From a virus, in the IMG/VR virus record IMGVR_UViG_3300042558_005120, positions 32,001-96,000 of that record: a stretch of 64,000 nt of DNA. One strand, 5' to 3'. Both the position numbers and the translations under genes were made by a program. A model generated the notes under the pieces. The model was not told the DNA's origin. It did no database searches and saw nothing but the letters and a program-made list of their open reading frames with translations. The first letter of the stretch is position 1; every line of letters starts with the position of its first letter. Shown one piece after another: positions 527 to 32,654 of the stretch.

Positions 527-945
527 TAAAAAAGTCGTTTAATATTTTTCTTTGCGAATATTTTATACTTGCCATCCAACTCACGGATAATTCGATCTTG
601 GTATGCAGAACCTAATTCATTAAACAGTGTCTCATACGGCGCAGTCATAAATTCAGCAATTGCTGTAAACCTTTCAACCGCAGACATATCGTCAGACTTT
701 AATCGGTCATCAAAGTAATAATAGATTTCTGCTAAAACTGATTTGCTGTTTTTTCGTGTTTTCTCAAAGTCCCCAGAATACGGTGACTCTTTGTAGATTT
801 TGTATAAATCTTCTTGAAGCTTTGTTTCAATATAGTCTTCGTATAAATCCCCAGTTGCTTCTTGAACTACTTTAATTTCACCAAATAGTTCATAGTCAAT
901 ATCCCCACGGTTAAAACTATTGTTAAATATTTTATCTTCTTTCAT
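526..945 (-). CDS. Hypothetical protein (139 aa)
   Basis: ORF tightly packed in the replication operon; no recognisable motif. Confidence 0.7.
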   Translation of the reverse strand: MKEDKIFNNSFNRGDIDYELFGEIKVVQEATGDLYEDYIETKLQEDLYKIYKESPYSGDFEKTRKNSKSVLAEIYYYFDDRLKSDDMSAVERFTAIAEFMTAPYETLFNELGSAYQDRIIRELDGKYKIFAKKNIKRLF

Positions 946-950
946 ACTTG

Positions 951-2072
951 TTATTCGTTAATAATTTGTGAATCGGGGTCTTCGGTTATGGACATATAAT
1001 CATAATCAATTAAAAACTTTTTTCGAGAATTTTTGTATCCGTCATCTCGATTCGCTAACAGTTTTAACATATACTCACGGTTGGCGTGCATAATTTCATC
1101 TTGGATGATACCAAACATAGCATCCACCGTATGACCTAAACCCGAAGACTCGGAAATATTAGTAATATTCAAATCAGTACTGCCGAAACCACTTCTGTTG
1201 ACTTGAGTTGCTGTGATAATTGCCCATTCATTTCGCATTGCCATGGCACGTAGGTCTTCAGCGATTTGTTTAATTTTCATATACATATTTTCGCTGTTTG
1301 GATTTCTCCAGTTTTTCAAGATATTAATGTAATCCAGGACAATTACTTTGAATTTAATACCTTTCATCTCTTCCATTTTCCTTAGATACATTTCCAAATC
1401 GGGAACACCTGCAGATGAAGTCGGAAATTCTTTTACAAATAATTTACCAGGCATCTGTAAATTGTTATAACCGATGCCTGCTAATTTTTTCTTAACCGCA
1501 ACTTTGTCTCTGGCAAAGTCACCATATTCTCGCATACTGATTCCAAGCATATTTGCACCCAAACGTTTGATTACTTTACGGTCTCGCATCTCTAAAGAGA
1601 TTACTGCAGTATTATAACCAAGTTTTACAGAATTAGATGCCACGTTTGCTAACCAGATAGAATTGTGACTTAATATACCGTTTGTATAGAACCTACGATT
1701 CTCATCTGAAAGTTGTAAATCATACATATTCTCGTATGTGCCAGTTTGGTTGATTGAATAAATCATCTCTGGTCCACTATCAGTGAGTATGTAATCACCT
1801 ATTTCTAGTTCATTGATAAATGTTTCAGAAAAAGCATTCAAGCCAGAAGAACATTTATACACAATATGAGTGTCAGCAGCACGTAAATTGAAAGATTCTG
1901 TTTTAATCTCCCATACTTCGTATTCTACTGTTTTGCCTATTGCTTTAATATCAACCCACCCGGTATCTGTTAAAACTTCAAATTCTTCTGTTCTATCTCC
2001 AAAAGTGAATGTTTCTACAAATTTTTTATACGGTCTTTCTTCTTCTGTTTTTTGAATAAAATCTTTTTGCAT
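951..2072 (-). CDS. gp41: Replicative DnaB/gp41-like helicase, C-terminal half, preceded by a 137-aa split-intein C-fragment
   Basis: Likely start is the ATG at 2072 (the track uses TTG at 2090). The intein part ends MYDLQL...FYTNGILSHN, followed by extein S-IWLANVA...ISLEM...VLDYINIL...ATQVNRSG...SESSG, which are SF4 helicase motifs. Confidence 0.9.
   Translation of the reverse strand: MQKDFIQKTEEERPYKKFVETFTFGDRTEEFEVLTDTGWVDIKAIGKTVEYEVWEIKTESFNLRAADTHIVYKCSSGLNAFSETFINELEIGDYILTDSGPEMIYSINQTGTYENMYDLQLSDENRRFYTNGILSHNSIWLANVASNSVKLGYNTAVISLEMRDRKVIKRLGANMLGISMREYGDFARDKVAVKKKLAGIGYNNLQMPGKLFVKEFPTSSAGVPDLEMYLRKMEEMKGIKFKVIVLDYINILKNWRNPNSENMYMKIKQIAEDLRAMAMRNEWAIITATQVNRSGFGSTDLNITNISESSGLGHTVDAMFGIIQDEIMHANREYMLKLLANRDDGYKNSRKKFLIDYDYMSITEDPDSQIINE
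1662..2072 (-). mobile_element. Split intein C-fragment (long, atypical split; 137 aa)
   Basis: Contains EVLTDTGW, block B AADTH, block F MYDL and terminal SHN followed by Ser+1 (codon 1659-1661). Confidence 0.88.
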
Positions 2073-2126
2073 ATTTTTTATTTTAATCAATACAATTTGC
2101 TGATACTTTAATTTTCTCGGAATTTT

Positions 2127-2642
2127 TTACCAGTTTGAATTAGTTGAATTTGTTTTTATGTGTTTATCATAACTAATAATTATTTCCTCTAGATCTTTTT
2201 TAAGTGATTCCATAAGTTCAATCCAATTTTTTTTAAATAAACAAGATTTTGATGTGCCTGGATATTCTTCCTGGGGTTCTAATATTAGAAAGCTGCCATT
2301 ACAATCACTGGATGAATATTTTACATTGTCAACAATTATTTTGTATTTAAAATCTTTCATAAGGATTTTTATTGTATATGAATACCAAAAGGTAAGACCG
2401 TTATTAGAAATTTCTTTTATAGTACCTTTTATTATAATAATACCGTTTTCCTTATCATCATTTTGAATAACTTCTTTAGATGATTTCCATTTTTCGGCAA
2501 TAAAAAATTTTGTATCTGAATAAATCTCATCTTTTGTTTTTTCTACAGAATCAATTTTCTCCCATGTAAAGTTTTTCTGAGAATACGAATAAAAAGATGA
2601 TAACATCATTAGTGCAATCATTAGATACTTAATAGTTTTCAT
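2127..2642 (-). CDS. Secreted DUF4468-like (TBP-like fold) protein of Bacteroidetes type
   Basis: Signal peptide (MKTIKYLMIALMMLSSFYSYSQ) and the pattern TKDEIYS..KSSKEVIQNDDKENGIIIIKG..IKILMKDFKYKI, typical of DUF4468 proteins (recognised by eye). Confidence 0.6.
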   Translation of the reverse strand: MKTIKYLMIALMMLSSFYSYSQKNFTWEKIDSVEKTKDEIYSDTKFFIAEKWKSSKEVIQNDDKENGIIIIKGTIKEISNNGLTFWYSYTIKILMKDFKYKIIVDNVKYSSSDCNGSFLILEPQEEYPGTSKSCLFKKNWIELMESLKKDLEEIIISYDKHIKTNSTNSNW

Positions 2643-2681
2643 TTAAGTTATTTTTAGTTTGTTTATAGAATAATTATAATT

Positions 2682-2708
2682 TATATGAAAAAATAATTAA
2701 TTAGTTTT
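2682..2708 (-). promoter_or_regulatory. Putative class-A phage promoter AAAACT-N14-TCATATA
   Basis: One of 7 copies with identical spacing upstream of replication-class genes. Confidence 0.6.
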
Positions 2709-3785
2709 ATTAATAAAATTAACACAATCGGAAATAACTTTCTCTGGATTATTTCGATAATCATTTTCCCATACAACTAATACTTGGTATCCACATTTTT
2801 CTATTAAATGTATCTTTTCAGTGTGAGCATCCCAAATTTCCTTTGCGGTTTTTTGTATCATTTTGTGGAAATACGTTGATTCATAAGTAGAAGGATTACA
2901 ATGCCAATAATCACCATTGAACTCAATAATTTTTTTGTCAATTACAAAGTCGTATGCAAAACACTTTTGTACTTCTGGAAAAAATCGAAAATATTGTTTT
3001 TGCCCGTTAAGTGCACAGTAATAAGTAGTGGAAGGCTCTAATTGGTCAACTATAGATTTAATTAATTCTAATTCAACAGAAGAGTATATGGTTTTACAAA
3101 TTTTTGTGAACTCACCGTTTTTGTATTTTTCTTCAATCTTTTTGCTCCATTTTATATGTCTTTCTTTCCATACCTCAGGGCCTAAATCTGAACCATATTT
3201 GTCAATACATTTTTCTAAAGTAAACGTTCTTTGTCTTTCCTTTTGCATTTCTTTAGCATCTTTAATTGTATATCCTTTGTTTAACCAATATTCCAATTCT
3301 AAAGGTGTTCTGCCTTTATATAATTCAGGATTATTTCGTATTTTATCTAAAAATACGCCAACCATTGAATTTGTTTGCTTCTTTTGTTGTGCTAAAGCTT
3401 CTTCTTTAGAATATCCTTTGTTTTCCCAATATTCTATTGTATTAAAATGCTGTCCAGGGTTTTCCTGTTTAGATTTACTTATGTTCTTTCCTCTTTTATT
3501 ATAAGAGCTGTTAATCTTATTAACAGCTTGCTCATAAGTTAATCCGAACTTTTCCATCTGCCACTGTGGGTTTGTTGTTAATTTAGCGGTCGCTGTTTTG
3601 TTTTTTAATTCATTGACTTTAGTAACCGCTTCATTATACGTTAAACCAAATTTTTGTATCTGATAATCTACAGAATACGGATTAGATTTTTTCCCCTGTA
3701 TCTCTTTAATTTTAATCAATGCTTCCTCTTCTGATAATCCAAACTTTGTCATTTGATAACTGACGTCTTTCCAACTTTTTCTCAT
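2697..3785 (-). CDS. Free-standing homing endonuclease, Vsr/DUF559-like, with N-terminal repeats
   Basis: C-terminal AYDF..KIIEFNGDYWH..GYQVLVVWENDY nuclease motifs; repeats such as YQ.xKFGL(S/T)..EA and YW.NKGY; lies between the two halves of a split-intein gene. Confidence 0.8.
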   Translation of the reverse strand: MRKSWKDVSYQMTKFGLSEEEALIKIKEIQGKKSNPYSVDYQIQKFGLTYNEAVTKVNELKNKTATAKLTTNPQWQMEKFGLTYEQAVNKINSSYNKRGKNISKSKQENPGQHFNTIEYWENKGYSKEEALAQQKKQTNSMVGVFLDKIRNNPELYKGRTPLELEYWLNKGYTIKDAKEMQKERQRTFTLEKCIDKYGSDLGPEVWKERHIKWSKKIEEKYKNGEFTKICKTIYSSVELELIKSIVDQLEPSTTYYCALNGQKQYFRFFPEVQKCFAYDFVIDKKIIEFNGDYWHCNPSTYESTYFHKMIQKTAKEIWDAHTEKIHLIEKCGYQVLVVWENDYRNNPEKVISDCVNFINKTN

Positions 3786-3843
3786 AGTTTGTAATGAATA
3801 TTTTAAATTATATATTCATTGGAGAGATGAAAATTTATGCAAA

Positions 3844-4536
3844 TTAATATGGGATAAATCGTTTATGGAATTCACCAATTTCAATTTCTTCAACAACTCC
3901 TGTTTTTTTGTTTCGGACAGCAATTTTGGCATCAGATGTGGTGCATTTACCAATTTTCATTTCACCGATAAAACAAAAAAGAGCTTTGCTGTACCATCCA
4001 CCGCCTAAGATTAAATCGAGATAAGGATATCCCGTAGAGAAAGTATCTGATGTTGGTTGCTCGTGGCTGTCGGGATTAAAGAAATCCAAACCTTCGTCAA
4101 ATCCAAATTGAATATTATTCCGGTCAGTGATAATCGACTTTGCAGTTTGGACAACATCTTTAATGTTCTCGGCATTGATTTTTGTATTTTTCAGATAGGC
4201 TATCAAATCCATTACTGAAAGATCCAAATTTTTAAATTCAATCCAAGATTGTGCAGTCTCAGAAATCCAGGTTGTGTCGAATTCAGAAAGACGAGTTTCA
4301 AAAATCATTTCAATTTTGGTCGAAGAAAGGTCATCCCCCAATTCTTGCATTTTTGAAATCTCAACACATTGTGCTGATGTAGGTACTTGAGAGTATTTTT
4401 GAATAAACTCAACAGATATTTCATAAAGTTTTCGAATATCTGGAGAATCAAAAAACCTGGGTTTCACAATATCCAACAGCTCTTTGTTGGCCATCAGATA
4501 GTGATAAAATATTTTTTCGAGGTGTGGTGCTGTCAT
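3844..4536 (-). CDS. gp41: Replicative helicase (gp41-like), N-terminal half, ending in a 33-aa split-intein N-fragment
   Basis: FSTGYPYLDLILGGG...FIGEMKIGK is a Walker A interrupted before its Ser, followed by CTTSDAKIAVRNKKTG...FIPY*. Likely start is the ATG at 4536. Confidence 0.88.
   Translation of the reverse strand: MTAPHLEKIFYHYLMANKELLDIVKPRFFDSPDIRKLYEISVEFIQKYSQVPTSAQCVEISKMQELGDDLSSTKIEMIFETRLSEFDTTWISETAQSWIEFKNLDLSVMDLIAYLKNTKINAENIKDVVQTAKSIITDRNNIQFGFDEGLDFFNPDSHEQPTSDTFSTGYPYLDLILGGGWYSKALFCFIGEMKIGKCTTSDAKIAVRNKKTGVVEEIEIGEFHKRFIPY
3847..3945 (-). mobile_element. Split intein N-fragment (short, 33 aa)
   Basis: Starts at Cys1 immediately after Walker A GK, with a block A-like pattern (C..D.I.V...I.I.E.); stop codon follows after 33 aa. 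Confidence 0.85.
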
Positions 4537-4542
4537 AGATAT

Positions 4543-4569
4543 TATATGCAAAATTAGTTAAATAGTTTA
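4543..4569 (-). promoter_or_regulatory. Putative class-A phage promoter TAAACT-N14-GCATATA
   Basis: Motif copy ending 6 nt before the helicase-N ATG. Confidence 0.55.
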
Positions 4570-4866
4570 CACCCAAGGCATATAGGTTAACTTAAATCGA
4601 TCTTTATTTTTTTCCAATTTAATTAGACTATCACTGTTAGGATTTACTAATTTATCCAAAAAAGTTCTTAGTTCTTCAATTGTACTAAAATGATATTTCA
4701 TTCCTGACCAAACTTGCTCTGGCAAAAAATCTTTACTTAGTCTATTTAAGTCGTCCAAGGTTGATACCAACGCATAACAGAGGTCGTCATACGTTGGGTA
4801 ACCAGGCATTTCTTGATAGACACCAAGTAAGTATTTAATCGGTAATTTAGACTGATTAATTTTCAT
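4567..4866 (-). CDS. Hypothetical protein (99 aa)
   Basis: ORF overlapping the end of uvsX-C, with operon-like packing. Confidence 0.65.
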   Translation of the reverse strand: MKINQSKLPIKYLLGVYQEMPGYPTYDDLCYALVSTLDDLNRLSKDFLPEQVWSGMKYHFSTIEELRTFLDKLVNPNSDSLIKLEKNKDRFKLTYMPWV

Positions 4867-5566
4867 CTTCTAAAATGGTGTTTGCAATTTCATCGTCTTC
4901 CAATTCGTTGATTTCATTAATATTTGGAAGCATAAATGTTTTCTTGATAATTTTTTCATCCAACTCTTTAAGAACTTCTTGCGTGATTATTTTTGCTGTA
5001 AAAAGTTCATTAGGCTTAATTGAATCTGCAAGGTGGCGAACAGCGATTGTCCTGGAAGTTTCCTTTCCTTCAAAGTAAAGGACTTCCTCGACCCCATTTT
5101 CTCGTGTTACTGTAAAACGAGTATTTGCTATTTCCGCTTGTTCGGCCGGAGACTTCTTATTAAATTCCTTTTCGGTAATAAGTTTACCTCTTTGTATTCC
5201 ACAAGTTTCCCAATTCATATACTCTTCTAAGCCAACAAAGCGGTTCATACCGCGAATAAAACTGATGTGAAACTTAATTGGAATTGGTCGAGCAAAACGA
5301 TTCTTTGCAGGTTTAGATGTAACAATAATTCCGGTTCGATTAGTTCCATCTTCCTTTAATTGTGCCTTGCTTAGTTGCAATATAATTGAAGCATTGTATA
5401 TTGCCCCGCCTCCACCACTGATTGTTTGTCCAGGGATATACGACCCGATCGAATTGTGCATCACAACCCCATCTTTGGACAAATAATGATGTGCAGTTGC
5501 AACTTCAATATCGTACACCGTATTTAAGTCACCCTGTTCTTTTTTAAGAAGTTTTAATTTTTTCAT
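4856..5566 (-). CDS. uvsX: UvsX/RecA-like recombinase, C-terminal half, preceded by a 38-aa split-intein C-fragment
   Basis: MKKLKLLKK...VYDIEV...GVVMHN, then extein S-IGSYIPGQTISGGGGAIYNASII...KNRF (RecA/UvsX C-terminal motifs). Confidence 0.9.
   Translation of the reverse strand: MKKLKLLKKEQGDLNTVYDIEVATAHHYLSKDGVVMHNSIGSYIPGQTISGGGGAIYNASIILQLSKAQLKEDGTNRTGIIVTSKPAKNRFARPIPIKFHISFIRGMNRFVGLEEYMNWETCGIQRGKLITEKEFNKKSPAEQAEIANTRFTVTRENGVEEVLYFEGKETSRTIAVRHLADSIKPNELFTAKIITQEVLKELDEKIIKKTFMLPNINEINELEDDEIANTILEDEN
5453..5566 (-). mobile_element. Split intein C-fragment (38 aa, canonical split)
   Basis: Basic N-terminus, block F VYDIEV, block G VMHN, Ser+1. Confidence 0.88.
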
Positions 5567-5604
5567 TGTTTGTTTTTATTTTCAGAAATCATACATTTTT
5601 GTAC

Positions 5605-6513
5605 TTATTTAACAAAAATTTCATCACCTTCTTCTAATTCATCAGCAGTAATCCAAGAATCCGTACTTGTAATATCATCTGGGTTAACCAAGAATAAGTG
5701 AAGTGGAGAACATTCAATTTTAATATCACCTTCAAAGTGTAGTTTAATAGTTCGGGTGTTATCATATTTAAATGTATCAACAACCGGCTGTGGTCCATCG
5801 ATTGTCATAACCACATCATTAATTTTGATTTCTTCTAGTTTTTTGCAAGTACCGTCTGCCATTTGTACTTCTGTATCACCTAAAGCACAAGCATAAGTGT
5901 GGTTTGTAAATATAAACGGGATTTTAAATTCAGCAAGGTCAGTTGTGATAACTCTAAAAAGTGAACGAAGATCTTGCTGTTTTGTCATATCCTTTTTCTC
6001 ACTTCCACTTGCAGCATCTACTTTTTCTTTTGTTGTTGCCAAGTTTCCTAATGAGTCTAACACCAACATAATTTTCGGAAGTTCAGTTCCTTTTTCTTTT
6101 GCTTTGCGTAAAGTGTCACATAAGTTAGCAACAAAGTGTCGGACTTCTAATGAAGTTGCAACTGGTTGGTAGCGAACTTTATCTGGGTCAATTCCAAAAT
6201 TTCTCATTATATCTTCATCCACTGCTGCTTCAGAGTCACAATAAATAATATTGTAACCCATCCTTTGAGCTTCACGGCAAGCATTTAATGTTAAAAAAGT
6301 TTTGCCCGTTCCTGACTCACCCGCAAAACAAATTGAACGAGAATTAGGTATCCCGCCAAAAAGTGAACCCGTTAATTGCGCATTTAATAAATAGTTACCA
6401 GTATCAATCCACTCATCAATTTTTGAAAAAGTATTCCCGGTAATAATTGAACCCTTTGGGTTGATTTTGGATAACACCGTATCCAATTCTGAAAAAGAAA
6501 ATCCTTTTGCCAT
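5605..6513 (-). CDS. uvsX: UvsX/RecA-like recombinase, N-terminal half, ending in a 94-aa split-intein N-fragment
   Basis: IDTGNYLLN..GGIP..AGESGTGKT (Walker A), DSEAA, VLDSLG (Walker B), TNHTYA, then CALGDTEVQMADG... Confidence 0.92.
   Translation of the reverse strand: MAKGFSFSELDTVLSKINPKGSIITGNTFSKIDEWIDTGNYLLNAQLTGSLFGGIPNSRSICFAGESGTGKTFLTLNACREAQRMGYNIIYCDSEAAVDEDIMRNFGIDPDKVRYQPVATSLEVRHFVANLCDTLRKAKEKGTELPKIMLVLDSLGNLATTKEKVDAASGSEKKDMTKQQDLRSLFRVITTDLAEFKIPFIFTNHTYACALGDTEVQMADGTCKKLEEIKINDVVMTIDGPQPVVDTFKYDNTRTIKLHFEGDIKIECSPLHLFLVNPDDITSTDSWITADELEEGDEIFVK
5608..5889 (-). mobile_element. Split intein N-fragment (94 aa)
   Basis: Block A CALGDTEV, block B CSPLH, acidic tail WITADELEEGDEI. 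Confidence 0.9.
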
Positions 6514-6527
6514 ATAATTTTTTTATT

Positions 6528-7715
6528 TTAAAAAAGTGCAGTTCGCACAAAAAGCTCTTCAGGTATTGAAGGGATGCCCATTGAATTTAAAAATCGGTTC
6601 ATTGGTTCGATAACACATTTTGCAAACTGAATATCATAGTCAACCTCGGGTGCCATTTCAGTAGGGAAACCGCCTGGCAGATATCCAAAGATATTCTGCC
6701 CGGCAGGACCCTTTGATTTTGCATAATAGTATCTAATTTTGTCACCTGATTTGATAAGCTCGTATTTGTTTTTCCATTTTGAGTTATGGACCAAATAGTT
6801 ATGATACCCGGCAGCTCGAACGTGAATGGGACAATTTGGATTTATTATAAAAGTGTCTCGGTCATTTGCGATTCCTTTCTCATAGTCATTGATACTTGAA
6901 GACATCGAAATTGCTTCAATATCACTTAACATAAATTCTTCCTTTTCTTTCTTTAAACGTTGAACGAATTTTTTAAGATCCAACTTGTTTCTTTCTTGAA
7001 AAAGAATAATTAACAAATCTTTTAGTCTTTTTCGAGCAAATGCAGGTGTAGAAGATTGAACAATCTCTACACCCTTTGCATCAATTTTGCTTTGTGGTTG
7101 GTAGCGAATACCATCGCCTTTGCCGGTTTTCCAAGCCTTATCCATAACGTATTTTTTCTTTTTCAAGAAAATAGCTGAATACGAAAGGGTTTCAAATTCT
7201 AGGTTTTGAATATTTTCTGTTCCAGATTTTTCTGCAAATTTTGCAAAATTCTTATCCAAATATTGTTTTAACCTAAGTTTGTAAATTTGATGTATCAGTT
7301 CTTCTGCGGACCCGTTCCAATCACATCCATTAACAACTTCTTGGAAAGTAATATAGACCGAATCTGTATCGCCATAAACTGATACATCATTAATTACTCG
7401 TTCAACTCTGGTTAGACCAAGCTTTGTGTGCAGCTCTTTATCTCGATACCAAAATTCTGAAAAATAACGATTCATAATACTTTGAACAAACTTGATAAGT
7501 TCTTGTCCTTGAAGCGTAATTGCTTCTGCAACTTTAATATTAAAACCAACAAAGTACGCGGATGCGGTTGCACCATAACAGCTGTTGATAAAGATTTTTA
7601 TTGCTTGTTCTTCATTTTTTTTGATGTTCATTAAAGAAGTTAATCTTTCGATTTCAGCTTTAATGTCATCACGACTTGCAGAAACTAAATCAATGTTCGA
7701 ATATTTTAAATCCAT
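6528..7715 (-). CDS. gp43: Family B DNA polymerase, C-terminal subunit (gp43B-like)
   Basis: Motif B KIFINSCYG, motif C YGDTDS, KKKY, KGVEIVQSSTP; lacks the exonuclease and motif A. Confidence 0.92.
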   Translation of the reverse strand: MDLKYSNIDLVSASRDDIKAEIERLTSLMNIKKNEEQAIKIFINSCYGATASAYFVGFNIKVAEAITLQGQELIKFVQSIMNRYFSEFWYRDKELHTKLGLTRVERVINDVSVYGDTDSVYITFQEVVNGCDWNGSAEELIHQIYKLRLKQYLDKNFAKFAEKSGTENIQNLEFETLSYSAIFLKKKKYVMDKAWKTGKGDGIRYQPQSKIDAKGVEIVQSSTPAFARKRLKDLLIILFQERNKLDLKKFVQRLKKEKEEFMLSDIEAISMSSSINDYEKGIANDRDTFIINPNCPIHVRAAGYHNYLVHNSKWKNKYELIKSGDKIRYYYAKSKGPAGQNIFGYLPGGFPTEMAPEVDYDIQFAKCVIEPMNRFLNSMGIPSIPEELFVRTALF

Positions 7716-10769: not shown

Positions 10770-12173
10770 TTATACATAACGTTCAGCCATACGTTTCCAA
10801 TTTGCTAACCCACCTAATTTAAAACCAGCTGCTTTTACAAATGTTCTCATACTAACAGATTTTGAATCTTTCATAAATTCAAAAATTTCTTCTTTGTCAG
10901 CAAGTGATAATTCCATTGGTTCAAGTTTTGGAAGTAGAACTCGCATTCTTTCAACAAGTGTTGCGTCATCTGGGCTAACATCAACTAATATTGATCTTGA
11001 ACGAATTGCACCATCGGGATCTGCTTTATCCTTTGGAAGATTTGAGATAAAAATAACCTTTCCAGTAAAGTTGAAATAAGAAGGGAATTCTCCGTTTTCC
11101 TGAGCTTCAAGTTCTCCATCTGGGTCATCCTCATAAATCTTAGGGTCATACAATTCACCTTTCATTCTCTTTTGGTAACTAATCTTACGAACCTTTTTTG
11201 TATCAAGTGCTGCTTTAAGAATATTACGACCGTTTTCATCGCGGAATACTGCATCACAGTCATCAAACACAACAATCTTATCATTGTATTGGAAAAACTT
11301 TTTGTACATCTGTATTGCAGAAACAGCACCTGAGATAATTGTATAATCAACCTCAGCAGTTAGTCCCTCATCTTTCAACGCCTTTTCAACATTATAAGTT
11401 TTACCTGTACCGGCTTTACCAGAGATAAATAAACTATTCATGCCAGGTGCATTGGCAGCAATTCTTCCAGTAATATCATAAATATCTTGTAATGTCTCTT
11501 CAAGATATTGAACTTTATCTTGCAAAGTCATAGTATTTTTTTGTTCAACTGGTGATTCTTTCTCAGTTGCAACCACACCTTCTTTGAAATCGTATATCAT
11601 ACGTCTAGGCACACCAAGCTGTTTGGAAATTTCTCTAACAGATTTTCCGGCATCAAGCAATGCTTCGATTTCTCGTACTTCATTTGGTGTAAGAGAGCCT
11701 TTGGCTTCATAAAGAAGATTATCCATATCCTCATTTTCAAAAATCGTTTTTGCATAAGCTGGATTTGAAATAATCAAAATAAATTCACCAACCAATTTTG
11801 TAATTGGGAACCGTTCAGATGTCATAATATAAGTGGCAACATCTGCAGCGTGATCTTCATAATATTCCAATCCACCAACGATTGCACCTCTGCTAGCAGT
11901 TGGAGGTGTAACACGGAAAGCAGATGTTCCTTTGTTTGCATAGAACATAACACCATCTATGTCTTGGCCTTGAATTGTTTTTGTAACAACAAAAGGAAAT
12001 TTCATATAGCCGTTTCCGGTTTCGCGGTTAACCATCGCAGCAATTAGATCTGCAGCTTTGCTCAGTTTTGGAAAATATCCATCAACCTTTGTCATTAAAT
12101 CCGCAGCTTCAAATAATTGCTTTTTTGACTCATTAATAAATGAGTCGTAATCTTTAAGATATCGTAATCCCAT
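10770..12173 (-). CDS. AAA+ ATPase with HTH region and shared leader (MGLRYLKDYDSFINE)
   Basis: Walker A GKAGTGKT, Walker B VVFDDCD, sensor IFISN, RSR; HTH GKSVREISKQLGVPRRMIY. Confidence 0.8.
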   Translation of the reverse strand: MGLRYLKDYDSFINESKKQLFEAADLMTKVDGYFPKLSKAADLIAAMVNRETGNGYMKFPFVVTKTIQGQDIDGVMFYANKGTSAFRVTPPTASRGAIVGGLEYYEDHAADVATYIMTSERFPITKLVGEFILIISNPAYAKTIFENEDMDNLLYEAKGSLTPNEVREIEALLDAGKSVREISKQLGVPRRMIYDFKEGVVATEKESPVEQKNTMTLQDKVQYLEETLQDIYDITGRIAANAPGMNSLFISGKAGTGKTYNVEKALKDEGLTAEVDYTIISGAVSAIQMYKKFFQYNDKIVVFDDCDAVFRDENGRNILKAALDTKKVRKISYQKRMKGELYDPKIYEDDPDGELEAQENGEFPSYFNFTGKVIFISNLPKDKADPDGAIRSRSILVDVSPDDATLVERMRVLLPKLEPMELSLADKEEIFEFMKDSKSVSMRTFVKAAGFKLGGLANWKRMAERYV

Positions 12174-12200
12174 ACTAATATTTTTTTTATTTTAATAGTT

Positions 12201-12209
12201 TATATATCA
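12201..12209 (-). promoter_or_regulatory. Putative late promoter TGATATATA
   Basis: Exact 9-mer found about 17-27 nt upstream of five late-type genes. Confidence 0.6.
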
Positions 12210-12216
12210 TTTTACT

Positions 12217-14043
12217 TTAGCGACCTTCTAACCATTTTTTTCTTTTATCTGAACTATTTCCAAATGCCATTTCGATAAATTTGCCTGCAGAACGGTCATT
12301 TTTAATTTTAAACATTTTTCGGTCATCCATAACATGGCCCCAGTCTTGAATACTCAATGAACCTAATCCCTTTAAATACCTAACATTTTTATAGTTCGTA
12401 TTTTCATTTATATATTTACTCCACTCATCGGTTGAATAAAAGTATTTTCTTTTTCCTCCGACTTCTGCAGTTATTAAAGGAATGATTAAAATATTAAGTT
12501 TTCCACTTTCGATTATTTGTGGAAACCATCGGTGAAATAGATTAATAATCAAAGATGCAATGTGTCCAATTCCGTCAGGGTCTGGGTCAGTTGCTATTGT
12601 GATATTTGTAAAACTGCAATTTGTTCCGTCATTTGGCTCGAGGTTTAGGATTTGCATCAAGTCAATAATCTCATCATTGCTTGACAAGTCACTTAATGTC
12701 CTAGCATTTTTAACCTTTCCTTTTAATGAATAAACACCGTCGATTCTTGGGTCTCTTTTTTGTAAAACAGATGCCATCGCAGATAGGCCTTCAACTATAA
12801 ATAAAGTACCTTTACTTTGTGATGGCGGAAAATATTTGTCACTGATTTTTTTCTTTGCAGCTTTCTTTTTACTTTTAATGGTTTTTAATTCGGCCTCTCT
12901 GGTATACTCGTCAATACTTTTTTGAACCAAATTAAACAATTCAGATTTTGGTAATTTACTGAAAAACCCTGCCTTAAAATGTTTGTGTAGAACTTCTTGA
13001 ATTTCAGACTTCTTAATTGCATAACGAGTTTTGTTTTGGTCAGCAAACTTAACTAATGCAGGTGGAAGGTTTAGAACCAACATTGTTTCAAAGAAGTGGT
13101 GAGCATACTGATACTTAAAAATATCATTTGCCCAGTCAGTAACAATTTTTTGATGGATACCTGTACAATTCGCACCGTTGATAAATGAAATACTTGTACT
13201 ATTTTCAGATTTTGGCCACATCAAAATCGAACCTATTTTACTCGTTACTGTAAATGTATCTTTAGGCAAGAAGTTAACATCCAAGTTTATTTTTTTTCCA
13301 TCGAAGATAAATTCAAAATCTAGGTTTGAAATAACAGGGTCGTTCTTTTTTAAGTAGTTTCGGAAAACAAACATCGAGAAAAGATATTCAAAGTCCCATT
13401 CGCTGGCTTTGAATGTGTCTTTTCTTGGAATAAATCGAACAGTCGTTCCAAGTGGTGTCCGATTTCTTTTGTTTAATTCTTCATGGAATTTTTTAAATTG
13501 CTTCCATTTGATTTGAAAAGAAACATCTAGGTTTACTGTATGGATTTCAAATTCATCCGAAAGCATATTTACTAATGCAGCACCCACGCCATTTGTTCCG
13601 ATTAAGGCATCTTCAGAAGTTTCATTATAAAAATTTGACCCGGCACGTAGCATTGACACTGCGGTCTCAACATTTGAAACTCCAGTTTTCGAGTTTTTCT
13701 TTTCGGCATTGATAAATCCGTTTCCGGTATCAGTTACAGTAACTTCTCCGGATTGACTATCTATAGACACGGTAATTTTTTTCATTTCGCCATTAAGCCT
13801 TTTTGCTTCATCAAAGGCGTTGTCTACTATCTCGTTAAGCATTTTATAAAAACCGACTGAAATTGTTTTACTTTTTTCAATCAATTTCCCGGATTCAATA
13901 ATGTGAACTTTTTCTTCGCTCAGGTCGACAGAACCAACATACATAGTTGGCCTCAATAAAGTATGTTCAAAATCACTTAAAGAAACTATTTCCTTTGAGC
14001 TGCTTGCGGACTTTTTAGATAAATTTTTTTCTTTCGTTGCCAT
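12217..14043 (-). CDS. gp39: Type II topoisomerase, GyrB/ParE-like subunit (gp39+60-like)
   Basis: RPTMYVGS, EIVDNAFDE, GTNGVG (GHKL), VEGLSA, DPDPDG (TOPRIM), YLKGLGS; likely start is the ATG at 14043. Confidence 0.92.
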   Translation of the reverse strand: MATKEKNLSKKSASSSKEIVSLSDFEHTLLRPTMYVGSVDLSEEKVHIIESGKLIEKSKTISVGFYKMLNEIVDNAFDEAKRLNGEMKKITVSIDSQSGEVTVTDTGNGFINAEKKNSKTGVSNVETAVSMLRAGSNFYNETSEDALIGTNGVGAALVNMLSDEFEIHTVNLDVSFQIKWKQFKKFHEELNKRNRTPLGTTVRFIPRKDTFKASEWDFEYLFSMFVFRNYLKKNDPVISNLDFEFIFDGKKINLDVNFLPKDTFTVTSKIGSILMWPKSENSTSISFINGANCTGIHQKIVTDWANDIFKYQYAHHFFETMLVLNLPPALVKFADQNKTRYAIKKSEIQEVLHKHFKAGFFSKLPKSELFNLVQKSIDEYTREAELKTIKSKKKAAKKKISDKYFPPSQSKGTLFIVEGLSAMASVLQKRDPRIDGVYSLKGKVKNARTLSDLSSNDEIIDLMQILNLEPNDGTNCSFTNITIATDPDPDGIGHIASLIINLFHRWFPQIIESGKLNILIIPLITAEVGGKRKYFYSTDEWSKYINENTNYKNVRYLKGLGSLSIQDWGHVMDDRKMFKIKNDRSAGKFIEMAFGNSSDKRKKWLEGR

Positions 14044-31712: not shown

Positions 31713-32654
31713 TTATAAAGAAAGAAGCATATCAACAACCTCTTGTTGTGGAAACAAATCAACTTTTCCGGCTTGGACATTTGTATGTAACCATACGCCT
31801 GGGGTTTTATTACATAGTGCAACATCTACTTTGTCAAATGCGCTTATTCCATGTTTCTTGATTTGTTCAACAATACCTTTTCTTGGATCAATACCGTCAC
31901 GGTTAGCAACCCAAAGAATCCAATCCTTTAGGACGGCAATCTGTTTGTCAGAATATCTGTGCCAATGTTTGAATCCTCTAAATGCCTGTGCTAATTCAAC
32001 AATTTGTGATGGATGCGCTTCGGTTCCAACATAAGTATAATACGAATTTGGTTTTAGTGCAGTCCAAATATATTTTTTCTGAGCTGCATCGTATCTTTGA
32101 TATCCACCTTTTGTTAATTGTCCAAAATTACACACCTCAATACCCACACTTTCTCGGTGCATAGCATCGTTGCCCGTACCTAAGTGCCATCCGTATCCAC
32201 CTTGTGGGAACACCTGAATTAGTTCGCCGTCGTGCTTAGTATTATTTCCAAGAATACTTTGTCCGCCTAAAACAAATTCAGTGGCAACAGCACCTCGATT
32301 ATCATAGCCCCAAGTGGAAACCGCGCCGTTTGGATCGTGCCATCCTGCGGTGTGATGTAGAAATATCCAACGTTTATTTACAGGTCCTGGGAAAAATTCG
32401 CCTTTCGGTAAATAATTTTTTGCAAATGTTAAACCTGTGCTTGGTTCAGTAGTTTCGCTAATATCGGTTGTTGCGATTCCCATTGCAGCCCAAGTTTTTG
32501 GACCAACAATCCCATCATCTACTAAACCATTTGCCTTTTGCCATGCTTTAACAGCGGCTTCTGTTTTTGGACCGAAATCACCATCAGCAGAAATCTTTAA
32601 AAACTGCTGAAGCAAAACAACTGATGCTCCAGTTGAACCTTTTTTCAAAATCAT
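31713..32654 (-). CDS. Endolysin: peptidoglycan-binding domain plus N-acetylmuramoyl-L-alanine amidase
   Basis: LKKGSTG..DGDFGPKTEAAVKAWQ..DGIVGPKTW; LHHTAG, WHLG, VGIEVCN, H..K.D. Confidence 0.9.
   Translation of the reverse strand: MILKKGSTGASVVLLQQFLKISADGDFGPKTEAAVKAWQKANGLVDDGIVGPKTWAAMGIATTDISETTEPSTGLTFAKNYLPKGEFFPGPVNKRWIFLHHTAGWHDPNGAVSTWGYDNRGAVATEFVLGGQSILGNNTKHDGELIQVFPQGGYGWHLGTGNDAMHRESVGIEVCNFGQLTKGGYQRYDAAQKKYIWTALKPNSYYTYVGTEAHPSQIVELAQAFRGFKHWHRYSDKQIAVLKDWILWVANRDGIDPRKGIVEQIKKHGISAFDKVDVALCNKTPGVWLHTNVQAGKVDLFPQQEVVDMLLSL

Follow-up and report, generated by a model that had tools for sequence, protein, structure and literature searches.

An atypically split intein predicted to join the two halves of a fractured replicative helicase in a lake-water phage

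How may a phage obtain a working replicative helicase when its gene is cut in two inside the Walker A motif (P-loop)? This question is raised by a locus on the minus strand, at positions 951-4551, of a stretch of viral DNA of 64,000 nucleotides (positions 32,001 to 96,000 of the IMG/VR record IMGVR_UViG_3300042558_005120; this whole stretch is referred to as the window). The locus comprises four open reading frames (ORFs), whose coordinates were taken from the ORF listing and from translation: two helicase genes and, between them, a putative homing endonuclease gene and a gene of the DUF4468 family. The helicase is encoded by two genes, one for the N-extein followed by an N-terminal intein fragment (IntN) of 33 amino acids (aa) and the other for a C-terminal intein fragment (IntC) of 137 aa followed by the C-extein. 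Our answer, which we regard as very probable, is that this is the fractured replicative-helicase gene of a large lake-water phage, and that its two proteins are joined by an atypically split intein (33 + 137 residues).

Two genes for one helicase

The genes, exteins and intein fragments are as follows.

3844-4551, minus strand: helicase N gene, 235 aa from TTG at 4551; ATG is codon 6 (4536), and the stop lies at 3844-3846
3946-4551, minus strand: helicase N-extein, residues 1-202, DnaB/gp41-like N-terminal region up to the Walker A lysine, ending in GEMKIGK
3847-3945, minus strand: IntN, 33 aa, with Cys1, block A, a β-hairpin and helix α1
951-2072, minus strand: helicase C gene from ATG, 373 aa (protein P0001), or 951-2090 from TTG; stop at 951-953
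1662-2072, minus strand: IntC, 137 aa from ATG (143 aa from TTG at 2090), with blocks B (AADTH), F (NMYDLQL) and G (GILSHN)
954-1661, minus strand: helicase C-extein, 236 aa, starting with the Walker A serine (SIWLAN) and containing the DnaB_C domain

The ATG at 2072 is the start of the C gene according to gene callers (P0001) and to the closest relatives (L003). Residues 19-204 of the N gene product match positions 171-368 of the PHROG 19 profile (DnaB-like helicase), and the C gene matches the same profile at positions 368-580, both genes meeting at position 368; the DnaB_C domain of the C-extein was recognized by Pfam with an E value of 2.9e-13. In a tblastn comparison with the uninterrupted helicase of Lak megaphages, residues 5-202 of the N protein and residues 144-379 of the C protein (TTG form) abut at 358873/358874. 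Since the exteins abut in the Lak phages and join at position 368 of PHROG 19, it can be concluded that removal of the intein restores a contiguous, conserved helicase. Translation gives a spliced product of 438 aa with the P-loop GEMKIGKS. The initial annotation, made from the letters of the window, had described a helicase split at the Walker A junction GK/S (a slash marks the junction) with fragments of 33 and 137 aa, and this is borne out by translation from the ATG, by the abutment in the Lak phages and by the PHROG 19 junction.

The N gene reads GEMKIGK/C at its junction, the cysteine being residue 203, and continues as CTTSD...FIPY to its stop, while the C gene reads GILSHN/SIWLAN; IntN and IntC thus lie on separate ORFs, 1.77 kb apart. 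We assessed the fold of IntC with AlphaFold2 (AF2), which produced an all-β model with a pLDDT of 85.6 from 59 aligned homologues. When this model was compared with the PDB by Foldseek, 38 matches at E<=1e-3 were obtained, and those listed were inteins or other HINT domains (BIL, hedgehog). The best match was VidaL (6vgv, E 2.7e-7, TM 0.65), and Cat, gp41-1 and NrdJ-1 were also among the matches. The model thus predicts that IntC carries the HINT fold. Sequence searches of the PDB point the same way: the single IntC sequence matched CatC (E 0.005) and VidaL (E 0.03), and a family profile of 36 IntC sequences matched VidaL (2.4e-13), gp41-1 (4.3e-9) and CatC (1.3e-8). The 33-aa IntN alone had no match in the PDB by phmmer; the best PDB match of a family profile of 29 IntN fragments was CatN (E 0.0034).

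The class-1 catalytic positions are all present, namely Cys1, the block B histidine, the block F aspartate, the penultimate histidine, the terminal asparagine and the +1 serine, and they are invariant or near-invariant across the family alignments. Among the 29 IntN fragments, 90% or more have Cys1, the block B histidine is invariant in both IntC family alignments, and so are M, D, G, L, S, H and N of blocks F and G. At position +1, each of the 122 sequences has S or T.

Trans-splicing and its alternatives

The course of events that we favor may be outlined as follows. Originally, the gene of a DnaB/gp41-like helicase would have carried a class-1 mini-intein in its P-loop, inserted after the Walker A Lys and before the Ser/Thr. 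The intein coding sequence would later have been invaded by a free-standing gene for a Vsr-like homing endonuclease, in the loop after α1 and not at the usual position of an endonuclease domain. With both proteins produced, the short IntN would dock on a partly folded IntC and complete the HINT fold. Cys1 would form the thioester, Ser+1 would attack it and Asn137 would cyclise, which would release the 438-aa helicase with an intact GEMKIGKS P-loop. The endonuclease may keep the cassette mobile, and the DUF4468 gene may be a later, still polymorphic passenger.

Several points weigh against this proposal. That the two helicase proteins undergo trans-splicing is what we infer from sequence, and the order of events, intein first and endonuclease second, is suggested by the model of Dassa 2009 (PMC2677866) together with the cis relatives. 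Block B (AADTH) has alanine at the Thr position of TxxH, though the proven-active inteins gp41-1 (SEEH), Cat (SDNH) and VidaL (AFNH) are also devoid of this threonine. The initial annotation had read block B correctly, but its view of an altered block B as a mark of the atypical type does not hold for the same reason. An intact second helicase could lie outside the record, which is ~38% complete; in its 109 kb there is one DnaB_C match, the C gene itself. Finally, we compared the locus with a 70%-identical relative (L003; IntC 71% and C-extein 92% identical) and obtained dN values of 0.059 for the N-extein, 0.139 for IntN, 0.213 for IntC and 0.053 for the C-extein, with a dS of ~1.8-2.1 that is saturated, so that the dN/dS values are rough.

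The alternative that survives best, although we consider it improbable, is that the halves assemble non-covalently through intein remnants and never splice. There is a precedent in the fragmented NrdA of phage Aeh1, in which domains derived from a mobile element reportedly only hold the fragments together. Our case for splicing is built on sequence, and two chains could, in principle, together make up the Walker A loop. However, docking domains would not need the catalytic residues, and all of these are kept, invariant or nearly so, over hundreds of diverged members. Moreover, an active ATPase is hardly to be expected if the P-loop stays cut between Lys and Ser.

Even less likely, in our opinion, is a dead helicase pseudogene, broken by a selfish endonuclease in a phage replicated by another helicase. 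The incompleteness of the record gives this explanation some room, as the other helicase could be encoded in the missing part. However, the record yielded no further DnaB_C match, and both frames are intact in many diverged relatives. The exteins (dN 0.05-0.06) and the intein halves (0.14-0.21) are moreover conserved against the saturated dS; as dN lies far below it, it seems that both halves of the intein are under purifying selection.

We also examined whether the architecture is real; the initial annotation had named misassembly as a way in which it might fail. The locus is covered by Logan contigs from independent metagenome runs of lake water, and those of runs X6 and X12 bridge the stop of the N gene into the endonuclease gene. 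The contigs are fragmented around 2100-2700 and none spans the full 3.7-kb stretch; the breaks fall where the DUF4468 gene shows a real indel polymorphism (see below). The exact product of the C gene (P0001) is on record in 9 contigs, and an equivalent architecture is present in dozens of independent IMG/VR contigs. Thus, although the window is a metagenome-derived viral contig, a chimera of two strains is hardly credible, and misassembly is excluded by the independent contigs that cover and bridge the locus and by the recurrence of the split in diverged relatives. We return to the fractured helicase, probably joined by a split intein, as the best reading.

The break point, known inteins and the wider family

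Two atypical positions of intein splitting have been distinguished, S2, after the first α-helix (AceL TerL, GOS TerL), and S1, after strand β2 (VidaL, PolB16) (PMC13014065). Here, the IntN family profile aligns to residues 18-32 of the 33 residues of CatN. A contiguous helicase of 632 aa (P0085) has a homologous, unsplit intein at the same GK/C...SHN/T site, and its AF2 model shows intein strands at 214-216, 220-225 and 231-235, a helix at 236-241 and a lower-confidence coil at 242-256; the input alignment of the second AF2 fold included contiguous members. The end of our IntN maps to about residue 245 of P0085, in the coil after helix 236-241. In the cis intein of Salmonella phage Maynard, the sequence ...IEELHKRF is followed by a loop, and our IntN ends with ...IGEFHKRFIPY at the equivalent place. 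The break thus sits in the loop following helix α1, which is the S2 position of AceL, GOS-TerL and Cat, in agreement with the initial annotation, which had put it near the N-terminus of the intein as in these systems. Three relatives (P0093, P0102 and P0112) have an IntC that begins with the α1 helix (e.g., ...INIEDFEII...) and are therefore of the S1 type, like VidaL, so both atypical positions occur in one lineage.

To our knowledge, the atypically split inteins characterised to date number about five. VidaL, whose host is presumably a T4-like helicase found in the Lake Vida metagenome, is the closest solved relative by profile and by fold (PDB 6vgv/6vgw; 16-aa IntN). It resembles our intein in blocks F and G (HRYY.DGI.SHN) and likewise has alanine at the block B Thr position. 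VidaL is split at S1, so that α1 lies in its IntC (PMC13014065), whereas the intein of this locus is split at S2. The S2 break is the same in AceL-TerL, GOS-TerL and Cat-TerL (PDB 6DSL; Cat is an engineered consensus) (PMC13014065), whose IntN lengths are 25, 37 and 30 aa, respectively, in comparison to 33 aa here. AceL and GOS-TerL are also of phage and metagenomic source and come from fractured genes, as in the window. However, AceL, GOS and Cat have TerL as the host and Cys at +1 (PMC11766414), while here the host is a DnaB-like helicase, the site is the Walker A GK/S and the +1 residue is Ser. Our IntC is ~21% identical to CatC and is longer (137 aa vs 104-115 aa in the TerL inteins). We thus conclude that this intein is of the same kind as AceL/GOS/Cat and belongs to another allele family. 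The initial annotation had likened its short N-fragment to those of the AceL/GOS-TerL (Cat) type, which is right for the split position; in kinship (~21% identity), host (helicase), site and +1 residue (Ser) it differs from them.

Fractured genes described before are gp41-1 to gp41-9, NrdJ-1, IMPDH-1 and a terminase (PMC2677866). As in our locus, the half-gene for the N-extein and IntN is followed on the same strand by a free-standing gene for a Vsr-like endonuclease and then by the half-gene for IntC and the C-extein (PMC2677866); the DUF4468 gene is an addition in the window. The fractured gp41 host is, like ours, a phage helicase of the gp41 type. Among close relatives of the window, a 48%-identical one (L004) has the order N gene, endonuclease gene, C gene; in L003 the N and C genes are 66 nucleotides (nt) apart without an endonuclease gene, like gp41-7 (PMC2677866). 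Close relatives show every stage: a cis intein, a split with the endonuclease gene and a split after its loss. The gp41-1 to -7 inteins are canonically split, with a long IntN and a short IntC (~88 aa and ~37 aa in gp41-1), at position 356 of the P-SSM2 gp41 (PMC2677866), which corresponds to the site NRSGF/GST. This site is uninterrupted in our helicase (residue 361 of the spliced product, or 356 counted from the ATG). The split of 33/137 aa at residue 202 is thus not the gp41-1 allele, just as the initial annotation had stated on the basis of the empty NRSGF-GST site. The gp41-1 extein residues are presumably TRSGY/SSS, and we assume that the sites of gp41-8 and gp41-9 differ from those of gp41-1 to -7. 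A second helicase intein was seen in P0012, P0009, P0075 and P0077, at ATQxNR/C...THN/SGFGS, 3 residues before the gp41-1-type site; it is a cis intein in P0012 and canonically split in P0009, P0075 and P0077, and the site is empty in the window. As this second intein is canonically split, the helicase of the latter three phages is in three pieces with two different split inteins.

Insertion between the P-loop Lys and Thr is a 'classic' one, known as DnaB point b (PMC4760082) and TerL1-a (PMC5050341). DnaB point b is the same insertion point as in our helicase, with the Ser/Thr after the Walker A Lys as the nucleophile. The inteins described there, in bacterial DnaB and in mycobacteriophage TerL1, are of the cis type, whereas ours is atypically split. 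The TerL cis intein of Kuttervirus/Ackermannviridae (Maynard, annotated Cys110-Asn268) belongs to the same family, with ~41% identity to our IntC over 90% of the length, and has the same type of Walker A site (GK/C...SHN/T); it differs in being contiguous, without an endonuclease gene, and in having TerL as the host. We found no description of an S2-split allele in a helicase P-loop in the accessible literature, which leaves out several key atypical-intein papers. The site, the architecture and the S2 break are each already known. From the atypical inteins characterised so far, this one departs in its host and site, in having Ser+1 in place of the Cys+1 of AceL/GOS/Cat, and in its low identity to Cat (~21%).

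We then assessed how widespread such inteins are. A search with the IntC region retrieved 370 proteins at E<=1e-3, the majority being IntC + DnaB_C halves of 355-390 aa. Loci encoding a relative numbered at least 509 in IMG/VR when an alignment was used as the query, and 2 with the single IntC query. A profile search of 1.84 billion cluster representatives (50% identity) gave 2293 clusters at E<=1e-3, 978 at 1e-10 and 328 at 1e-30. Of the best 150 clusters, the majority have an IntC match starting at residue 2-6, so these are mostly split C-halves; a regular-expression survey of 145 among the best 150 found the junction well inside the protein in 23, mostly cis forms. The family is also present in 312 deposited phage records, mostly Ackermannviridae, and some of its members are annotated as inteins. 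Among the 70 deposited rows inspected, the named features are all TerL, the rest being unannotated or 'hypothetical protein', and none has a helicase annotation over a family hit. The initial annotation had proposed a potentially new allele; given a lineage of hundreds of metagenome clusters, with its cis form annotated in cultured phages, this is not a rare allele.

The hosts of these inteins are diverse. Among the top 86 representatives, Terminase_6N was found in 43 and DnaB_C in 9, with one each of AAA_2/ClpB, SMC_N, KaiC-like and clamp-loader; the extein starts also indicate ClpX-like, ABC-like, Rad50/SbcC-like and RecD-like hosts. In every host case inspected the cut falls between the Walker A Lys and Ser/Thr. 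In other loci, 27 distinct IntN fragments of 27-42 aa are paired with their own IntC, and the IntN consensus is C....T.I.IRNKKTGEIEEI.I..F. The gap between the halves is -11 to ~450 nt without an endonuclease gene, or 930-1475 nt with one. At a TerL locus (L019:3782-5342), the endonuclease ORF runs in frame into IntC without a stop, as an open stretch of 490 aa, and the IntN stop overlaps it by 11 nt; the endonuclease and IntC may be fused here, or translation may begin at an internal start.

In a FastTree phylogeny of 260 IntC domains, the intein of the window falls into a pure-helicase clade of 38 (support 70-86), and the TerL intein of the same genome groups with TerL inteins. At least 17 switches between helicase and TerL were counted, and all host changes amount to 40 in comparison to ~105 for shuffled labels, counts which are indicative only as the alignment has ~120 columns. 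We tentatively propose, with somewhat less than even confidence, that our element is the tip of one very large phage lineage that targets the Walker A Lys/Ser-Thr junction itself and has switched hosts many times, among TerL, DnaB-like helicases and ClpX/ClpB-like, clamp-loader, Rad50/SbcC-like, ABC and RecD-like ATPases. This lineage would be mostly S2-split because Vsr-like genes invade the loop after α1 and not the canonical position. If this is true and has not yet been described, it would provide a natural library of hundreds of split inteins with a short IntN, Cys1 and Ser or Thr at +1, and a case of homing that is directed by a motif and not by a gene. For protein engineering, Cys1/Ser+1 together with a short IntN (down to 27 aa in the family) would leave Ser, not Cys, in the product; the source is a mesophilic freshwater phage, and hundreds of diverged pairs, which may be orthogonal, are contained in the family.

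Genes between the halves and other fractured genes

Between the two helicase genes we found the following features.

2697-3785, minus strand: free-standing gene of a putative Vsr-like (PD-(D/E)XK) homing endonuclease, 362 aa
3779-3833, minus strand: tentative spacer hairpin, with an inner stem at 3793-3820 and an outer stem pairing with the endonuclease ATG at 3785
2127-2642, minus strand: DUF4468 gene, 171 aa, with a hydrophobic N-terminus (Pfam DUF4468, 5e-8)

The C-terminal half of the predicted endonuclease matches PHROG 22677 (E 9e-19). There is also a weak Pfam match to REase_MTES_1575 and a weak phmmer match to E. coli Vsr across DFV...FNGDYWH...VWE. By these similarities the product of 2697-3785 fits the Vsr-like homing endonuclease family of the fractured genes (PMC2677866), and homologues are found in the equivalent position in L004 and many other loci. 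The N-terminal half (3300-3785, minus strand) contains ~5 tandem repeats of 25-30 aa, of the KFGL[ST]xEEA / YW.NKGY..EEA type, which are probably DNA-binding modules. It is unlike the paralogue at the TerL locus of the same genome, whose match covers only residues 158-359.

In the fractured genes described before, a hairpin with a box resembling a late promoter lies upstream of the endonuclease start (PMC2677866). The spacer hairpin found here (-8.8 kcal/mol) is a weak signal, with z = -2.4 and 6 of 200 shuffles folding equally well. Its loop is TATAAT-like, and the TATAAATA box is not present. A scan of 800-4700 for sigma-70 promoters and terminators gave nothing above chance.

The DUF4468 gene occurs in neither L003 nor L004 and is additional cargo, outside the usual cassette. 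A contig of run X6 joins 2160 to 2660, skipping 499 nt, with a depth of 17.5 vs 6.1 for the gene-bearing form, and in run X12 there is no cover over 2140-2635; the gene is thus an indel polymorphism in the population. The locus appears to be a clear case of selfish elements nested one in another, first an intein, then a homing endonuclease gene and then a passenger, in a gene that is essential for replication.

The helicase is not the only fractured gene in this genome. The TerL gene (G000:C1 ~11977-13812, outside the window) is also fractured at Walker A, at SRQIGK/C...GILSHN/T. Its IntN has 53 aa, its IntC is 42% identical to that of the helicase, and the two halves are separated by a gene for a Vsr-like endonuclease of 375 aa, a paralogue that is 53% identical to the one in the window over residues 158-359. 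A recent jump within the genome between TerL and helicase was considered and rejected, since the inteins are 42% identical and each clusters by its own host type.

A UvsX/RecA-like recombinase at 4856-6513 (minus strand) is encoded by two genes as well, here with a canonical split intein.

5605-6513, minus strand: UvsX N gene, with a 94-aa IntN at 5608-5889
4856-5566, minus strand: UvsX C gene, with a 38-aa IntC at 5453-5566, ending in VVMHN/SIGSY

A spacer of 38 nt without any gene separates the two. As the helicase, TerL and UvsX are all split by inteins, it seems that at least three replication, recombination and packaging proteins of this phage would rely on trans-splicing. In L003, UvsX is intact (L003:3729-4946), with the junction ...HTYA/SIGSY, and it is the DNA polymerase gene (L003:912-3714) that is fractured, at ...YGDTDSV/...HN/SVYVTFQ; the split intein there is canonical, and an endonuclease gene of 366 aa separates its two halves. 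In the window, the DNA polymerase homologue (6528-7715) is uninterrupted at this site. Since the polymerase is split in L003 and unsplit here, such cassettes evidently come and go among close relatives.

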